NCBI GenBank assembly: GCA_963815495.1
Contig: CAWFGW010000028.1
Coordinates: forward strand, 195,779 to 259,778
Origin: an uncultured Cytophagales bacterium
GTDB taxonomy: Bacteria > Bacteroidota > Bacteroidia > Cytophagales > JAAEPT01
DNA: 64,000 bases
Reading direction: 5' to 3'
Within the stretch, counting starts at the first letter, position 1, and the number at the start of each line of letters is the position of its first letter. Below are positions 33,001 to 48,000 of this stretch, piece after piece. Made by a program: the position numbers.

Positions 33001-36000
33001 AAGATTGAAGCTTCTATACAGGAAGTGAAGTCAATGATGGCGATAAATGAAGCAATGAAAACGAAGACCGAGAGTATGATGAAAGATAAAAATCATCTAA
33101 TGATTTTAGGGATAGTATTAATTATAGGTTTAGCCGGTGCTTTGTTGTTTAGTCTTTTTGGATAATTCTCAAAGAGAACTTATTGAGTATTAAACTGTTT
33201 TACTTAACAGTATTTAATGCTTGTAGTCGATTAGAAGTTAAATAGCTGAGGGCTTAATAAAAGGAAGATAATGAGCAATATAAGCCACTAATTCAGGATA
33301 AAATACATAAATCACTTCATTAAGCTGACCTTTTTTACGAGGGTATCATCAATCACAATGATATAATAACCCACTGCAGCTGGCTCGCCTTTGTTGGTGT
33401 ATCCATTCCACGAAGTGGGCGCTTGCAATTCTTGAATTAAAAAACCTTCAACGTTATATATTTTAGCCGAACCACTTTCCGTAATCGGGAAGGTATCGTA
33501 TTGACCATCGCCATCAGGAGAAAACACATCTAACTCGGTAGAAACATCGGAGCATGGAACCAAAGTGAAGTTCTTTTCAACCGTAGTTAAGGCATAAAAC
33601 TGAATATCATCTACGGCAAAGTCATTTTCTTCTTTAGCAGTGTTTAAGCTTTTAATAGCGATTTCTAACGTACCTGTGGTATCAGCAACCCAATCAAAAG
33701 TCAGTTCATTCCACGAAATATTTTTGGGTAAACTCATAGACTGAATAAAGGTGCTATCGATGTAGACTCCGAACTTCGCACTATTAAGGGTTTCAGGGTT
33801 AGATGCAGTGAGGAAGTCTTGGTGGATGTTGGTTGCCCAAAAAGCAAATCGATAGGTTTTTCCTTTAACTACATTGACTTTGTATTCGACAATAGCCTTG
33901 TAATCAAATTTACTGGCATCCGCGATAAGCATATTACCACCATTGCCTGTGTGATCTTGAATATTGACAAAAGCAGAAAGCACCGAAGGATTGGGGGTAA
34001 GGTTGAAGTCACCGTTATTAAAAACGGTATCGTTCATCTCAGTAAGGTCGTAGTCGGAAGTAAAATTGGTTACCCCACTTTCAAAATCGCCATTGATGAT
34101 TAAGTTATTAGATAAGGTGCCGGCAGCAACTGCGGTTATGGTCTGATTGGTTGGGGTGGTGGTAAGCACAGGTTGCTTCGACAGTAAAACTGAGTTTTCG
34201 TACCAACCAATAAAGGTACCATTGGAATGGGCTTCCACAGTAACGGTGTTTTTATCACAAGAATATTGTTCAGTCACATCAATAAAACAGTCATTCGTAC
34301 ATTGAGCCTGCAAGAGCAGCGGGCTTATTGCAAGTAAACAAATAAATAATATAGAGGTGATGCCTTTCATTCCAAGTTAGTTCAGGATAGTAATTTCTCC
34401 TTTGATGGTTTTAGTTGCTGTGCTGATGGTGTAATAATATAATCCTGTAGGCTGCGCGATGCCGTTGTTGTTGTTGCCGTTCCATTCAATTTTATCCACA
34501 CTGCTGATTTCATACACCAACTCACCATTTTTATTGTAGACCTTCAGGGTAGCCATGACTCCAACTGACTCATATAATTTAATGACTGATTCAAACGCCA
34601 AATTAAGCGTATAACTTGTTTTAGGACAAAACTTCTCAGGTACTTCGACTTCCATGTCTGTGGTACATCCGTTTTGGTCGTTGATGCTAAAGTTGTAATA
34701 ACCCGCAAACAAGTTTTTAAATGTTTCACCTGCTTTGTTTTTGTAATAAACCGTATAAGGAGATTGGCCACCAGAAAACGGTTTGTCAGCGAAACTAACG
34801 CCACCATTTGCTTCACCAATGCAGGCTGTATCGATGGTTGGTTGTGCTACTATTTTTACTTTGCTACAATCAAAGGTCGTTGGAGTAATTTTTCTAACGG
34901 GTGGTAATTCTTTAGGTGTTTCTTGTATTGGCGTTTCCTTTATTGGATTTGTCTTCTCTACTGTTATCGGTACAATAGCAGGGACAGGGAGAGGTTCTTT
35001 TTTCTCCTTTTCGGTTACGTCAGGCGTAGAGGGTGCCTCTACAGCTGCTTTTGCTGTCGTTGGCGCTTTCGAGGGTGTTACAGGTTCCAGTGGTGTGCTT
35101 GTTGGTTTTTTAACAGCATCAGACAGTTGAGGAGCTTCCACAGTTGGCGTTGGGGTAACCAGTAACACTTGAGCAGGCTTTTCAACCTCAACTGGTTCAG
35201 TAGGTGTTGTATTGGCTGACTCATTAAACGACTGAAGCAATAAATATCCCGCGATGGATAAAGCAATAACAACTACCGCAGTGCCATATTTAATGTATTT
35301 ATTCTGTAGTTGCCGTTGGTCATGCTGTTTGATTCCAACATTCATTTTAGCACGAAGGTCGTGGTTGCTCGCTTGCTTTGTGATTTCACGTGTCAATTGT
35401 TGTAATTCGAGAGCCGTTGCCATTTCTGCGTTAGTCGCTAACTGCTTTTCAAACTGAAGCAAGGCATCGCCAGACAATTCTCCGTTGAGGTAGTTTTCAA
35501 TAAGGTGATATGTTTCTTCGTGTTTATTCACTTGCGTATCGAGTTAATTAACTCCATGTTTTCATGTGCAATTTTGATTAGCGCTTGATTGCAGCGATAT
35601 TTAGTTGCTTTGGCTACTTGTTCATTTTTATAACCCAATTCTTTACATATTTCAGCCATCGATTTATGGTCATATATGATACTTTTCATCAGTTGCCGAC
35701 AACGTTCATCCAGTTTATTAAAAAGTTGGTGCATAGCACTTTCCTTTTCTTTATTAATTACCTGATCCAGTTGATTATCTTCAGGCTGATGTTCATGCAT
35801 ACTATGGTCAACATACTTCTGGTTGACCTTTTTTCTTTTATTGATGTTGATCCACAAGTTTTTACAAATTGTGTAAATAAACCCGTCAATCTCATGGTTT
35901 CTATTAAATGAACCTTCTTTCACTTTTTGAAACAAGACAATCACTGCATCTTGAAACAGGTCATCAGCTTCTTCTGTTGTGCCACTATTTTTTACTATAT

Positions 36001-45000: not shown

Positions 45001-48000
45001 GCTATACCCGATACTAATTTTCGAGAGTATCTTCAAACACGAATTCCTTTAGCTTTTAATGCTAATAATGAGTTGATTATAAGTCAGGCAAAAGCATATA
45101 GTGGTGATATTTCTTGTCATAAACGGGGGATAAACACTCTCTCAGGGCTAGAATTCTTTCATAACATTACTTTACTCAACTGTGCCTTTAATAATCTCAC
45201 TAGTTTACCCGCTCTAGATAGCTTGACAAACTTACGACAGATTTGGGCACATGATAACCAGCTTTCGGTGCTACCACAGGTTAGTCAACTTACCAAACTG
45301 GAAGTGTTGAATGTGAAAACCAATAAACTCACTTCGTTACCAGCCCTGTCTAACTTGAGGATGTTGAAAGAGTTGGACTGTAGTGGGAATAGGCTTACTG
45401 CGTTACCTCCCTTGAACTCCCTTTCCAATTTGGAATTGATATATGTCTATAATAACAGCATCACTCAATTTCCTCCTATTAACAACCTTACGAAACTTCG
45501 GGTTTTAGATCTTCAGGCTAATAAGCTTTCAGTGGTTCCAGATCTGACAAATAATACCAATCTGACTATCCTAAGATGTGATAATAATCAAATAGAGGTA
45601 CTTCCTTCGCTCAAACATTTAACCTTACTTAAAGAGTTAGGTTTTGCTATAAATCAAATCAAGAAATTCCCTCAACTTTCTCCAAACAGTACTTTAGTTA
45701 AAATTATAGGTTCCGATAATTTGATAGATACTTTACCCGATCTTAGTGCATTCACGGGTATAAAAGAGCTTAATTTGACCTACAATTTTCTTTCTTTTTC
45801 TGATGTACTTCCGTTAGTGAGTTTTCCCAAATTTGATTCTATCATATACTTAAACCCTCAACGCACTTTTGTGATCGATACTACGGTTAATGCTACTTTA
45901 GGTGCTTCGCTGGAAATAAATGCAAAAATAGACGGTGGAGTAGAAGGAAACCGCTACACCTGGTATAAAGATTCAGTAAAAGTTGCAGAAACAACTACGC
46001 CTTTTTTACCATTTGAACGTGTTAATCAGTCGGACGGAGGAAGCTATACCTGCGAAATCACAAATAGTTCACCTTTATTAGCCCATATAACACTCCATGT
46101 TGGAGTTATACAGCTAAAAACACAGCCCTGTATTTCTATCAATTCAATTAATTACGAATTGCTTGAAAATGATTGTAAAAAAGGTGCGCATATTACTATT
46201 GAAGATGATGATATAGAGGCTAAATATCTTCCACTTACGGCACATCTCGTATCTTCTTTGAATGCGAATGACAGATATACCACACAATTGCCAGGCGAAA
46301 TTGCTAATATAAAACCAGGATTTTATTCCTTGCGAATTGAGGATGTTAATAAGTGTGGTCTTGAACTTCGTAATTATATTAAAATTTCTAACCCTACTAA
46401 TTGTACCAATAGCTTTACACCCAACGGTGATGGTTTGGAAGATACTTTTTTTATAGAAAAGAAGGGGAAGGCAATGATTTATACCAAAGATGGAAAACTA
46501 GTTGATACGCTTGATGTACCCAACGCTTGGGATGGTAAAGATAGCAAAGGGGAGTTAGTTCCAATGGGTTTATACCTTATTATCGTGGATGATAATACCG
46601 CAATTGAAGTGGTAGTTATCCAATAATGATACGTTTAATTTTTTAGTTTTTAATTTTTTTAATACACGCTGTTACTTTTTTACCCCTTAGGTGTACCTCT
46701 GTTGTGGTGAGATTTCAAAAGGTGTTTTTCATAAAACAACACGCTTTTGTGCTCTAGGCCAGAGTCTAACCTTAAAACAGTCGTATGAAAACAATTTTAC
46801 AATTCGCGCTTATTTTAGCCCTTCCCATCATCAGTTTTGGACAAGGGTTTACAACCAACAATACTAACGGAAATCTTATTGATGCCAACGGAAACAATTT
46901 CATAATGAAAGGTATGAATGTACCGCTGTCCTGGTTTGTGAACGATGTTAACGGTTCAATTGACGATGTGCGGAATAATACAGGCTCAAATTGTTTACGC
47001 ATTGTCGTAAACACGAGTACATCTGATAATGCCTGGCAAACTGCAGTACAAAATTGTATCGATAATGATATGATTCCGATGGTGGAGTTACATGATGTTA
47101 CAGGAAGTACAAGTGCATCAGCGCTTAATCAAATGGCTCAGTTCTGGGCTTCTAAAGCTTCCTTTTTAACACGACCTACTATTGCCAAATATATCTTAAT
47201 TAACATTGCCAATGAGTGGGGAACATGGCAAACGGCTACAGATGATGCGAATAATCCCAATGGAGGAGCATGGTTGAGTGCTTTTACAACTGCCATTAAA
47301 ACACTTCGTGATGCTGGAATTAAAACCACCTTGGTAATTGATGCCGTAGGTTATGGACAAGATCGGTTCGAAGCAAAAAATATCCGAGATGATGCTAAAA
47401 CGATGATGGCTTCTGATGCTTCTTTTTTGGGTGGACAGGCCAACTTACTTTTTTCTATCCACATGTATTGTGAATGGAGAAAAGGAGGAGATGATATCAC
47501 CATTGTTGGTACCATAAAAAATTCAGGTATCCCGATCATAGTAGGGGAGTTTGGTTTTCAGCATGCTACTGATGGATCCTGCGATATTGATGAACAACGA
47601 ATTTTAGATTTGTGTCAGCAATACGGAGTCGGGTGGCTGGCTTGGTCTCAAAAAGGAAACAGTAGTAATGTACAGTATTTGGATTTATGTATAAACTGGT
47701 CCTGTTCCTCCTTATCGGATTGGGGAAATACAATAGTAAACGGCAGAAATGGAACAAAAACGTCAGTTACCTCTAGCGTATTTAATACTACCACCAACCC
47801 AATGCCAACCGTTACCCTCACCGCACCAGCGAATAATGGAGGCGTATGTATCGGCACCACTATATCAATGGCAGCTACAGCCTCCATCACCAGTGGTTCG
47901 GTAAGCAAAGTAGATTTCTATAATGGTAACACCCTTTTAGGTTCAGACAACAACTCACCTTATTCCTATACGTGGAACAATGCCCCAGCCGGTAGCCATA

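Follow-up and report, generated by a model that had tools for sequence, protein, structure and literature searches.

This study analyzed a 64-kb window of DNA from an uncultured Cytophagales bacterium (GenBank assembly GCA_963815495.1, contig CAWFGW010000028.1, positions 195,779 to 259,778 of the forward strand), in which two mirrored gene modules bracket a pair of pectate lyase genes. The window is the whole stretch of 64,000 nucleotides, and the coordinates of all open reading frames (ORFs) are positions within it. Each module combines a gene for a sigma factor of the extracytoplasmic function (ECF) type, a gene for a membrane protein that resembles an anti-sigma factor (designated asf in this study), a gene for a type IX secretion system (T9SS) cargo protein, and a divergently transcribed gene for a PorP/SprF-like outer-membrane protein. 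All ten ORFs of the two modules and the pectate lyases were found where a preliminary description of the locus had placed them. Module 1 comprises cargo1 (33312-34370), asf1 (34377-35531), and sigma1 (35528-36100; 190 amino acids [aa]) on the minus strand and PorP1 (36199-37095) on the plus strand; module 2 comprises PorP2 (42221-43105) on the minus strand and sigma2 (43222-43794), asf2 (43791-44903), and cargo2 (44929-46626) on the plus strand. Between the modules, both on the plus strand, lie Pel1 (37329-40751), in which Pfam profiles indicate two pectate lyase domains, a Big_7 domain, a CBM6 domain, and a type-A T9SS C-terminal domain (CTD), and Pel2 (40816-42129), in which Pfam profiles indicate a pectate lyase domain and a type-A-like CTD. 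Module 2 is followed on the plus strand by a GH5 cellulase-family gene (46785-48869), a SASA-type carbohydrate esterase gene that overlaps it (48866-50776), and a gene for an esterase with a CBM6 domain (50913-52772).

The sigma gene overlaps the asf gene by exactly 4 nt in both modules, as had been described. Because only 6 nt separate cargo1 from asf1, the two genes are probably co-transcribed; the gap between Pel1 and Pel2 is 64 nt, and Pel2 is probably co-transcribed with Pel1. Gene-by-gene comparison of the two modules revealed identities of 32% between the sigma factors, 23% between the asf proteins, and 27% between the PorP proteins; the modules are old paralogues. According to the Pfam profiles, Pel1, Pel2, the GH5 protein, the SASA-type esterase, and the esterase/CBM6 protein all end in a type-A CTD, and the whole neighborhood is T9SS cargo. 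No SusC/D pair was found in the window between 33 and 53 kb, and the source databases attach no name to any cassette protein of the locus or of its relatives. Two of the ORF starts listed earlier lay too far upstream. The Pel1 ORF opens at 37200, yet its probable start is the ATG at 37329, where a typical signal peptide begins, and the sigma2 ORF opens at 43186, inside its own promoter, with a probable GTG start at 43222. The same spurious N-terminal extension occurs in the Pel1 orthologue of a related locus (L002).

Both sigma proteins have the features of ECF (group IV) sigma-70 factors, being approximately 190 aa long and matching the model of the ECF superfamily. In profile searches, Sigma70_r2 matched sigma1 at 29.3 bits and sigma2 at 25.6 bits (cutoff 24), and TIGR02937 matched them at 64 and 52.5 bits, respectively (cutoff 42.9), which bears out the earlier assignment of these genes as ECF-like. 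Sigma70_r4_2 scored only 15.8 bits on sigma1, and none of the named ECF subfamily models reached its cutoff for either protein. A weak similarity to FecI (31.5 bits versus a cutoff of 260) was confined to the sigma factors.

The topology of the asf proteins was analyzed through hydropathy, on which all signal-peptide and transmembrane (TM) calls rest, and through an alignment of 18 family members. Each protein of the window contains a single hydrophobic segment, at residues 84-102 of asf1 (35226-35282, minus strand; hydropathy peak 1.97) and residues 81-99 of asf2 (44031-44087, plus strand), and hydropathy revealed no N-terminal signal peptide on either; the asf proteins are thus single-pass membrane proteins, as first described, and they carry no cleavable Sec signal of the kind found on T9SS substrates. 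In asf1, the flank before the TM segment is net positive and the flank after it net negative. Across the family, the preceding flank is net positive (+1 to +6) in all 18 members and exceeds the following flank (-4 to +3) in 16; cysteines are absent before the TM segment in 17 of the 18, and four invariant cysteines follow it. Because of these flank charges and this cysteine distribution, the asf proteins fit an N-in/C-out orientation with a C-terminal part that would fold in the oxidizing periplasm. A T9SS-type CTD on an anchored protein had been regarded as a topological puzzle. The puzzle is milder than claimed, because T9SS signals are normally recognized in the periplasm, where the CTD is predicted to lie; the unusual part is that this CTD would stay tethered to the inner membrane.

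Residues 1-83 of asf1 (35283-35531, minus strand) form a putative sigma-binding cytoplasmic domain, in which helices are predicted and for which the role is suggested by context; residues 1-80 of asf2 (within 43791-44903, plus strand) correspond to it in the alignment of the two proteins. The YLxGxLSxxE..F..L motif of this domain is conserved across the 18 homologues. A low-complexity segment of 96-141 residues, poorly conserved and containing few bulky hydrophobic residues, separates the TM segment from the first cysteine. In asf1, this segment covers residues 103-221 (34869-35225, minus strand), is rich in Pro, Thr, and Glu, and is predicted to be a disordered tether on the basis of composition, length, low conservation, and a predicted local distance difference test score (pLDDT) below 35; in asf2, composition and length place the tether at residues 100-196 (within 43791-44903, plus strand). 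The Pro-rich linker of the preliminary description holds for asf1 (19% Pro) but not for asf2, in which the linker is rich in Lys, Val, and Glu.

Beyond the tether, each asf protein carries a SprB-like repeat, at residues 222-302 of asf1 (34626-34868, minus strand), where it contains the four family-invariant cysteines, and at residues 197-285 or so of asf2 (44379-44645, plus strand), as aligned with asf1. The repeat was real but not detectable with its standard profile: PF13573 did not match the asf repeat segments even at an E value of 10 in a Pfam scan of the isolated segments, whereas an exhaustive search with a full-length asf profile revealed that residues 225-300 or thereabouts match 12-76 repeat units in each of a set of giant proteins. 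The two giants that were checked (P0141 and P0041) contain 12 and 19 PF13573 repeats and are bona fide SprB-repeat proteins. The giants dominated this search, with three full-length asf matches among the best 150, and residues 234-383 of asf are collinear with the last 150 or so residues of several of them. The asf repeat is accordingly classified, from profile comparison, as a divergent member of the SprB repeat class.

The asf proteins end in a CTD-like domain, at residues 303-384 of asf1 (34380-34625, minus strand) and residues 286-370 of asf2 (44646-44900, plus strand). These regions matched CHU_C (PF13585) at 35.3 and 30.3 bits, above the cutoff of 27, in agreement with the earlier reading of the C-terminus as CHU_C-like, and, similar to the CTDs of cargo1 and cargo2, they are located at the extreme C-terminus. 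Because of the repeat matches and the collinear match to the C-termini of the giants, the periplasmic end of asf is best described, at the sequence level, as the last SprB repeat plus a type-B CTD. Type-B CTDs contain five conserved motifs, each of which is required for secretion of the SprB CTD (PMC12618676). When the CTDs of asf, cargo, and canonical proteins were aligned, four of the five type-B motifs were retained in asf, as the IYxKxGxLV, WxG, GxYxY, and GxvTIxR blocks; the FxPNGDGxND block is present in the cargo CTDs. We take the FxPNGDGxND block to be motif A of the five-motif set, the sequences of motifs A-E being those of the family consensus; in this nomenclature, asf1 keeps motifs B-E and has lost motif A. 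Compared with an orthologue of 82% identity, asf1 is 95% identical in the SprB-like repeat, 87% in the CTD, 84% in the N-domain, and 70% in the tether. The repeat and CTD are the best-conserved part of the protein and are under purifying selection, and a T9SS-type CTD is indeed fused to a protein anchored in the inner membrane, an arrangement that had been noted as unexpected.

The two cargo genes encode proteins with signal peptides, as judged by hydropathy, and type-B CTDs. Cargo2 contains an internalin-like leucine-rich repeat (LRR) region (LRR_4, 86 bits), an Ig domain (Ig_3), a SprB-like repeat before the CTD, observed in the sequence and through profile matches on the L004 orthologue, and a CTD that matched CHU_C at 32.2 bits (cutoff 27). 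Cargo1, like cargo2, had been described as a CHU_C-terminated cargo; its CHU_C score of 24.5 bits lies below the cutoff, yet its C-terminal 70 residues are 40% identical to the cargo2 CTD (E 2e-15). Cargo1 further comprises an Ig-like domain and a jelly-roll domain resembling carbohydrate-binding modules (CBMs), with weak matches to CBM_4_9 and choice-of-anchor C in the profile search. An AlphaFold2 model of cargo1, built from an eight-sequence alignment (pLDDT 68), matched mostly carbohydrate-binding jelly rolls in Foldseek, including a porphyran-binding CBM (TM-score 0.65), CBM22, CBM16, CBM4, CBM6, CBM51, and SGBP-B of B. thetaiotaomicron. Because these model matches agree with the weak CBM_4_9 and choice-of-anchor C matches, cargo1 plausibly binds glycans while anchored at the cell surface.

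A scan of 185,579 species genomes seeded with the sigma factors recovered 16 loci from Cytophagales, Sporocytophaga, and Bacteroidales metagenome-assembled genomes (MAGs), with sigma identities of 32-92%. An asf-type gene follows the sigma gene in all 16, and the asf start overlaps or closely trails the sigma stop codon at every locus examined. The asf protein carries a CTD in 12 of the 16 loci, and a type-B cargo gene, a PorP gene, or both lie near the pair in 14; for L009, a short contig, and L012, the cargo would fall outside the sequence covered. Further loci (L018, L020-22, and L023/L024) were found through asf or cargo orthologues rather than through the sigma scan, bringing the recurrence of the cassette to more than 20 loci in Cytophagales and Bacteroidales MAGs. 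The coupling of a sigma/anti-sigma-like pair to a type-B cargo and a PorP/SprF gene, which had been proposed from the window, recurs across the surveyed loci with two exceptions, L010 and L023/L024. In a Sporocytophaga MAG (L008, 6552-7290), a short asf is split into ORFs of 99 and 141 aa, by a frameshift or pseudogene formation or by a sequencing error.

The mirrored arrangement around two pectate lyase genes was observed in two further lineages (L018 and L020-22), and up to three paralogous cassettes stand side by side. The third cassette of L020 (14815-18796) encodes a sigma factor of 195 aa, an asf of 354 aa with SprB-like repeat and CTD, an LRR cargo of 462 aa, and a divergent PorP of 289 aa, and it adjoins a gene for a DUF6055/DUF4859 protein with a type-A CTD. 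In a fourth lineage (L023/L024), the order sigma, CTD-bearing asf, and cargo1-like gene is found beside a beta-helix protein with a type-A CTD, on contigs that end just past the cargo. The closest relative (L001/L002) contains module 1 and its pectate lyase without an adjacent module 2. The two-module arrangement is not due to chance, because the modules are paralogous gene by gene and the cassette recurs in many genomes.

The divergent PorP/SprF gene described for each module was confirmed by PF11751 (PorP_SprF), which matched PorP1 at 73.7 bits and PorP2 at 50.6 bits over nearly its whole length (cutoff 22.3); TIGR03519 scored 60.6 and 40.2 bits, under its cutoff of 90.55. The two proteins belong to the same divergent subfamily. 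PorP proteins encoded beside CTD-bearing asf genes form a clade of their own: they match one another at 47-414 bits, and no score against canonical PorP proteins exceeds 45 bits. The canonical proteins of L003, L007, and L011 fall outside this clade, and CTD-less asf variants accompany canonical PorP genes. PorP1 and PorP2 have neither a C-terminal tail nor cysteines, and so no SprF twin-Cys tail (PMC12635249). The idea that loci with a CTD-less asf contain no PorP gene was rejected, as Pfam finds a canonical PorP gene downstream of the cargo gene. At three of these loci (L007, 10326-12398; L008; L011), a PD40 (WD40-like beta-propeller) gene follows the canonical PorP gene, recalling the PorP-PorE pairing of non-motile type-B cargo (PMC9143113).

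A bipartite element, T[TC]AC-N16-TGTA, precedes the sigma gene in 17 of 18 loci, 30-52 nt upstream, with the consensus GGTTACnTTT-N12-TGTA and the short form GTTAC-N16-TGTA, and the sigma factors are predicted to be autoregulated through it. The predicted sigma1 promoter (TGTTTACCTTTT-N11-TGTAT; 36116-36143, minus strand) has boxes conserved in L002, L018, and L020, and an exact copy of these boxes is located at 37259-37286 on the plus strand, between PorP1 and the ATG of Pel1. This pattern, with 17 specified bases, occurs exactly twice in the window, against 0.03 occurrences expected by chance. The pectate lyases, described earlier as bracketed by the modules, are bracketed and are in addition linked to module 1 through this predicted promoter, a link that had been missed. 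The predicted sigma2 promoter (TGTTACTTTT-N12-TGTAC; 43168-43194, plus strand) is conserved in L020 and L004, and its pattern occurs at three places in the window (0.46 expected): at the promoter itself, at 46670-46696 on the plus strand before the GH5/carbohydrate esterase operon with zero mismatches, and, as a weaker candidate with two mismatches and a position weight matrix (PWM) score of 13.0, at 50858-50884 on the plus strand before the esterase/CBM6 gene. These sigma2-type boxes, which had also been missed, mark the GH5 and SASA-type esterase genes as putative sigma2 targets.

We further ranked the sites of the 64-kb window with an independent PWM trained on ten non-window loci only. The Pel1 site ranked first, the sigma1 site second, and the sigma2 site fourth, and five window matches exceeded a score of 14 against 0.8 expected. 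Matches at 38020 (plus strand) and 39635 (minus strand), inside the Pel1 coding sequence, and at 55550 (minus strand) were judged spurious by their position or by the missing -10 box. In L002, L018, and L020, the Pel promoter likewise lies between porP and pel, its position unchanged, with its boxes kept and its spacers diverged. A sigma2-type site precedes a SASA esterase gene in L020, a strong site precedes the gene for a PL11 rhamnogalacturonan lyase in L004, and the Bacteroidales loci have a second strong site between the porP gene and an operon that encodes a PKD protein with a type-A CTD, followed in most of them by a type-B cargo. The subtype bases track the cognate sigma factor, with TGTTTACC...TGTAT/G on one side and TGTTACT...TGTAC on the other. 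No PWM match above threshold was found at the promoter of the third-cassette sigma gene of L020, and this sigma factor may have a different promoter specificity. Because subtype-matched promoter copies precede Pel1, the GH5/esterase operon, the esterase gene, and the rhamnogalacturonan lyase gene of a relative, the cassettes probably regulate adjacent genes for T9SS-secreted carbohydrate-active enzymes (CAZymes). Each sigma factor is predicted to drive its own sigma-asf-cargo operon and the adjacent secreted-enzyme operon; we make this prediction with good confidence for Pel1 and with moderate confidence for control of the GH5/esterase genes by sigma2.

The cassettes share one architecture, are conserved across genomes, and share promoters with neighboring genes. 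The explanation that we favor, at about even odds, is that each of them is a dedicated ECF sigma/anti-sigma unit that controls its own operon and the adjacent operon of T9SS-secreted enzymes, with a tethered pseudo-signal docking to the PorP shuttle, and the mechanism would be as follows. The N-terminal helical domain of asf would hold the sigma factor at the inner membrane, and the SprB-like repeat and type-B-CTD-like domain would extend across the periplasm on the disordered tether of approximately 100-140 residues. The pseudo-signal formed by the repeat and CTD would dock, probably at the T9SS translocon, to the PorP/SprF-like shuttle of its own cassette, for which the co-encoded surface cargo (CBM-like in module 1 and LRR in module 2) would compete. 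Engagement may alter the stability of the anti-sigma factor, for instance if site-1 cleavage and subsequent intramembrane proteolysis become possible, and the sigma factor would be released; the targets would be Pel1-Pel2 for sigma1 and, for sigma2, the GH5/acetylesterase genes and probably the esterase gene that follows. Sigma activity would report the occupancy or activity of the shuttle or T9SS and, via the surface cargo, possibly the presence of substrate, and the loss of the FxPNGDGxND block may leave the asf domain recognizable but not secretable. Type-B CTDs need and stay bound to cognate PorP/SprF-like shuttles (PMC12618676, PMC9143113), and a CTD can act as a periplasmic signaling ligand even when tethered to the inner membrane, as in PorA-PorY (PMC12152298).

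The preliminary description had suggested that the modules sense secretion or surface display, which we treat as a hypothesis. Its fullest form, an as yet unrecognized type of trans-envelope signaling with a secretion signal turned sensor, is a possibility that we put forward tentatively. In this form, a tethered type-B signal, recognizable but probably not secreted, would be shown to its own PorP/SprF-like shuttle at the translocon, a surface binder would compete or modulate, and the occupancy of an outer-membrane slot for secretion or anchoring and, by way of the binder, plant polysaccharide would set the activity of the ECF sigma factor that drives secreted pectinases and hemicellulases.

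Several observations weigh against the docking mechanism, in part or as a whole, and a number of them suit an explanation in which the regulatory cassette and its regulon stand but the SprB-like repeat and CTD form an ordinary periplasmic sensor, of pectin or hemicellulose oligosaccharides or of accumulating unsecreted cargo. There would then be no docking to PorP or the T9SS, and co-regulation or co-location alone would bring PorP and the type-B cargo into the cassette. This is the main rival, and we consider it less likely, if still a serious contender. The CTD match is itself divided: PF13585 recognized both asf proteins and cargo2, but TIGR04131 was reached by none of the four CTDs (asf1, asf2, cargo1, and cargo2; 13.7-21 bits versus a cutoff of 35), and the CHU_C matches overlap the generic FlgD_ig beta-sandwich family. 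Within the asf CTDs, a shorter FAPDxGExW takes the place of the FxPNGDGxND block, except in the asf1 type, where the block is wholly lost; none of them has the block taken as the secretion-essential motif A of PMC12618676. In four related loci (L003, L007, L008, and L011), asf stops after the SprB-like repeat and has no CTD, a subgroup whose existence indicates that the CTD is dispensable for some family members; these variants, with the repeat alone, are still coupled to sigma, cargo, and PorP genes, the next genes encoding an RCC1-repeat cargo (canonical CHU_C, 79-86 bits), a canonical PorP/SprF (approximately 243 bits), and a PD40 protein. The best-conserved segment of asf is, moreover, the repeat, and anti-sigma factors with carbohydrate-binding sensor domains are known, as in RsgI/SigI of C. 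thermocellum (mentioned in PMC10766802). Against an ordinary sensor stand, on the other hand, a repeat and CTD that are collinear with the C-termini of true type-B cargo and lie at the extreme C-terminus like real signals, the co-occurrence of a specialized PorP clade with CTD-bearing asf, head-to-head with the sigma gene, and a disordered tether of 100-140 residues, which exceeds the need of a membrane-proximal ligand sensor. Also unfavorable to docking are one locus (L010) in which neither a cargo gene nor a PorP gene lies within 6 kb of the sigma gene and the CTD-bearing asf gene, the finding that no ECF-type promoter above threshold precedes the porP genes of the window or its relatives in the promoter scan, and the location of the known contacts between CTDs and shuttles, which involve the translocon or the shuttle's outer face and are not simply within reach of a tethered domain. 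The MAG that contains L010 is labeled Roseobacteraceae; because T9SS CTDs are a Bacteroidota feature, this label is probably a binning or taxonomy error.

We infer from gene context that asf is an anti-sigma factor. The anti-sigma-like N-terminus of the preliminary description holds as a conserved motif but not as a recognizable domain, by sequence or by structure. The best family match, zf-HC2, was insignificant (E 0.25; 11.9 bits versus a cutoff of 22.2), the HxxxCxxC motif is absent from the N-domain, and no anti-sigma family, including RskA and FecR, matched significantly. Profile searches of PDB with N-domain alignments of 5 and 15 sequences returned insignificant matches only, a word-indexed homologue search with a five-sequence alignment of the N-domain and TM segment found nothing, and an AlphaFold2 model of asf1 from a three-sequence alignment (pLDDT 42) gave only hints of N-terminal helices and a C-terminal beta domain. 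These results would be compatible with asf serving the cargo/PorP pair as an accessory tethered to the inner membrane, for example as a holder in the periplasm or an assembly factor that primes the shuttle through its pseudo-CTD; its co-transcription with an ECF sigma factor regulated otherwise would then be incidental. Such a role seems improbable in view of the gene order, with asf starting at or just after the sigma stop at every locus examined, and of a cytoplasmic helical domain of approximately 80 residues followed by a single TM segment, which is the canonical layout of a membrane anti-sigma factor; the YLxGxLSxxE...F..L motif also aligns with the zf-HC2 core, if only at the E value given above. 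Autoregulated ECF sigma factors are, as is generally known, usually paired with a co-transcribed anti-sigma factor (ECF classification, PMC7826278). The promoter calls for the GH5 and esterase genes are weaker than the Pel1 call, since the GH5 site scored only 10.4 by the independent PWM, where approximately 4.5 matches above 10 are expected by chance, and the esterase site has its two mismatches; with the two high-scoring and probably spurious matches inside Pel1 added, the matches before the CAZyme genes might be coincidental and the sigma factors might regulate their own operons only. We regard a coincidence of this kind as very unlikely. The Pel1 site is exact over 17 bases, ranks at the top with a PWM built without window sequences, and has conserved boxes with divergent spacers in three other lineages at the same porP-pel position, and the subtype-specific bases follow the cognate sigma factor.

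Compared with known systems, the cassettes resemble FecI/FecR/FecA and the ECF-sigma/anti-sigma/SusC-like signaling of Bacteroides polysaccharide utilization loci (PULs), in which the gene for an outer-membrane beta-barrel partner adjoins those for an ECF sigma factor and its co-transcribed single-pass anti-sigma factor. The predicted autoregulation, a regulon of nearby nutrient-acquisition genes (here CAZymes), and several paralogous units per genome, each beside different enzymes, are further similarities. However, the module proteins have no FecR, Plug, TonB_dep_Rec, or STN matches in the profile search, and the cassettes therefore do not have the FecR domain, the TonB-dependent transducer, or the N-terminal signaling domain that define FecIRA signaling. 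In contrast to FecIRA and PUL signaling, the outer-membrane partner is a PorP/SprF-like T9SS shuttle, the anti-sigma factor has as its periplasmic module a copied type-B secretion signal, carried on a long disordered tether, and the enzymes are secreted by the T9SS, with no SusC/D pair in the 33-53-kb interval.

Similar to the cassettes, the PorA-PorXY-SigP pathway of Porphyromonas gingivalis (PMC7712824, PMC12152298) places a periplasmic T9SS CTD as a signal upstream of an ECF sigma factor, and PorA tethered to the inner membrane still signals (PMC12152298). In that pathway, a type-A CTD on a separate secreted protein binds the histidine kinase PorY and the output consists of T9SS component genes, whereas in the cassettes the CTD is type-B-like and covalently part of the anti-sigma factor itself and the output apparently consists of cargo and CAZyme genes; the sequence relationship between the two is confined to the CTD fold class. 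The cargo1/PorP1 and cargo2/PorP2 pairs fit the scheme of a type-B cargo and its cognate shuttle known from SprB/SprF and Fjoh_3952/3951 (PMC12618676, PMC9143113), and the asf C-terminus shares with SprB-type cargo the layout of SprB repeat and CTD, including the blocks that we take to be motifs B-E. Unlike in those pairs, porP does not directly follow the cargo gene but faces the sigma gene head-to-head, and the cassette PorP proteins form a divergent clade, of which the two members in the window lack the twin-Cys tail of SprF (PMC12635249); unlike SprB-type cargo, asf lacks both the cleavable signal peptide and the FxPNGDGxND motif.

Two other systems are comparable. SigI/RsgI of Clostridium thermocellum (mentioned in PMC10766802) also comprises paralogous sigma/anti-sigma pairs, each for a set of polysaccharide-degrading genes, and its anti-sigma factors also have an extracytoplasmic module borrowed from the world of enzymes and cargo, but it is a Gram-positive system of the SigI family with outside-exposed CBM sensors, which the cassettes do not have, and has neither a secretion-signal domain nor an outer-membrane partner. 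The FlgM/sigma-28 checkpoint is alike in concept, in that a secretion signal borne by the anti-sigma factor links its activity to the state of a secretion machine; FlgM is soluble and wholly exported by the flagellar type III secretion system, whereas asf is anchored in the membrane and could engage the T9SS with its periplasmic tip only. The ECF sigma factor CHU_3097 of C. hutchinsonii is described as regulating an outer-membrane protein, and that description does not mention a CTD-bearing anti-sigma factor. Our literature search, the coverage of which was incomplete, found no description of an anti-sigma factor with a T9SS CTD or of a sigma/anti-sigma pair dedicated to a type-B cargo and PorP. 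We rate the cassettes as ECF sigma/anti-sigma signaling with an unprecedented sensor module and an unprecedented partner.

How bacteria that rely on the T9SS rather than on SusC/D-based PULs time their secreted polysaccharide-degrading enzymes is poorly understood, and the cassettes provide concrete candidates for the regulators, namely two sigma/anti-sigma pairs (three in a relative) with predicted promoters and target operons. If the proposed mechanism is true, the cassettes would be a T9SS-based functional analogue of the PUL sensor-regulator, present in multiple paralogues in Cytophagales and in some Bacteroidales, and the finding from PorA-PorY that a CTD serves as a periplasmic signal would extend to type-B signals and PorP/SprF shuttles. 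The asf CTD would be a natural variant without one conserved motif, useful for separating recognition by the shuttle from translocation. The GTTAC-N16-TGTA promoter and the asf domain signature could serve for annotating such regulons in Bacteroidota genomes.

Other features of the window were also recorded. Beside cargo1, a gene on the plus strand (32644-33165) encodes a 173-aa response-regulator receiver protein that consists of a REC domain only and has a hydrophobic C-terminal segment, being membrane-anchored; neither L002 nor L018 has this gene beside the cassette. A C-terminal region of approximately 355 residues (Big_7, Ig-like, Big_7, and type-A CTD) is shared by the GH5 protein and the SASA esterase and appears more than 90% identical by eye, which suggests recent duplication or gene conversion of the non-catalytic tail. 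A further very large T9SS cargo of 2175 aa, with FG-GAP, ASPIC/UnbV, DUF11, DUF7619, and type-A CTD domains, is encoded at 17354-23881 on the minus strand. The region at 9499-16811 contains two arrays of three copies each of a unit of approximately 964 bp, with copy starts at 9504, 10468, and 11432 and at 14292, 15251/15548, and 16197, and the copies share stretches of 600 nt or more with 100% identity. The arrays flank an ORF of 234 aa (12595-13299); no ORF in the array region reaches 150 aa, and the AT skew there is extreme (+0.34 to +0.38). The arrays may have arisen as an assembly artefact, or they may represent a large non-coding tandem repeat or a repetitive gene that has degenerated.

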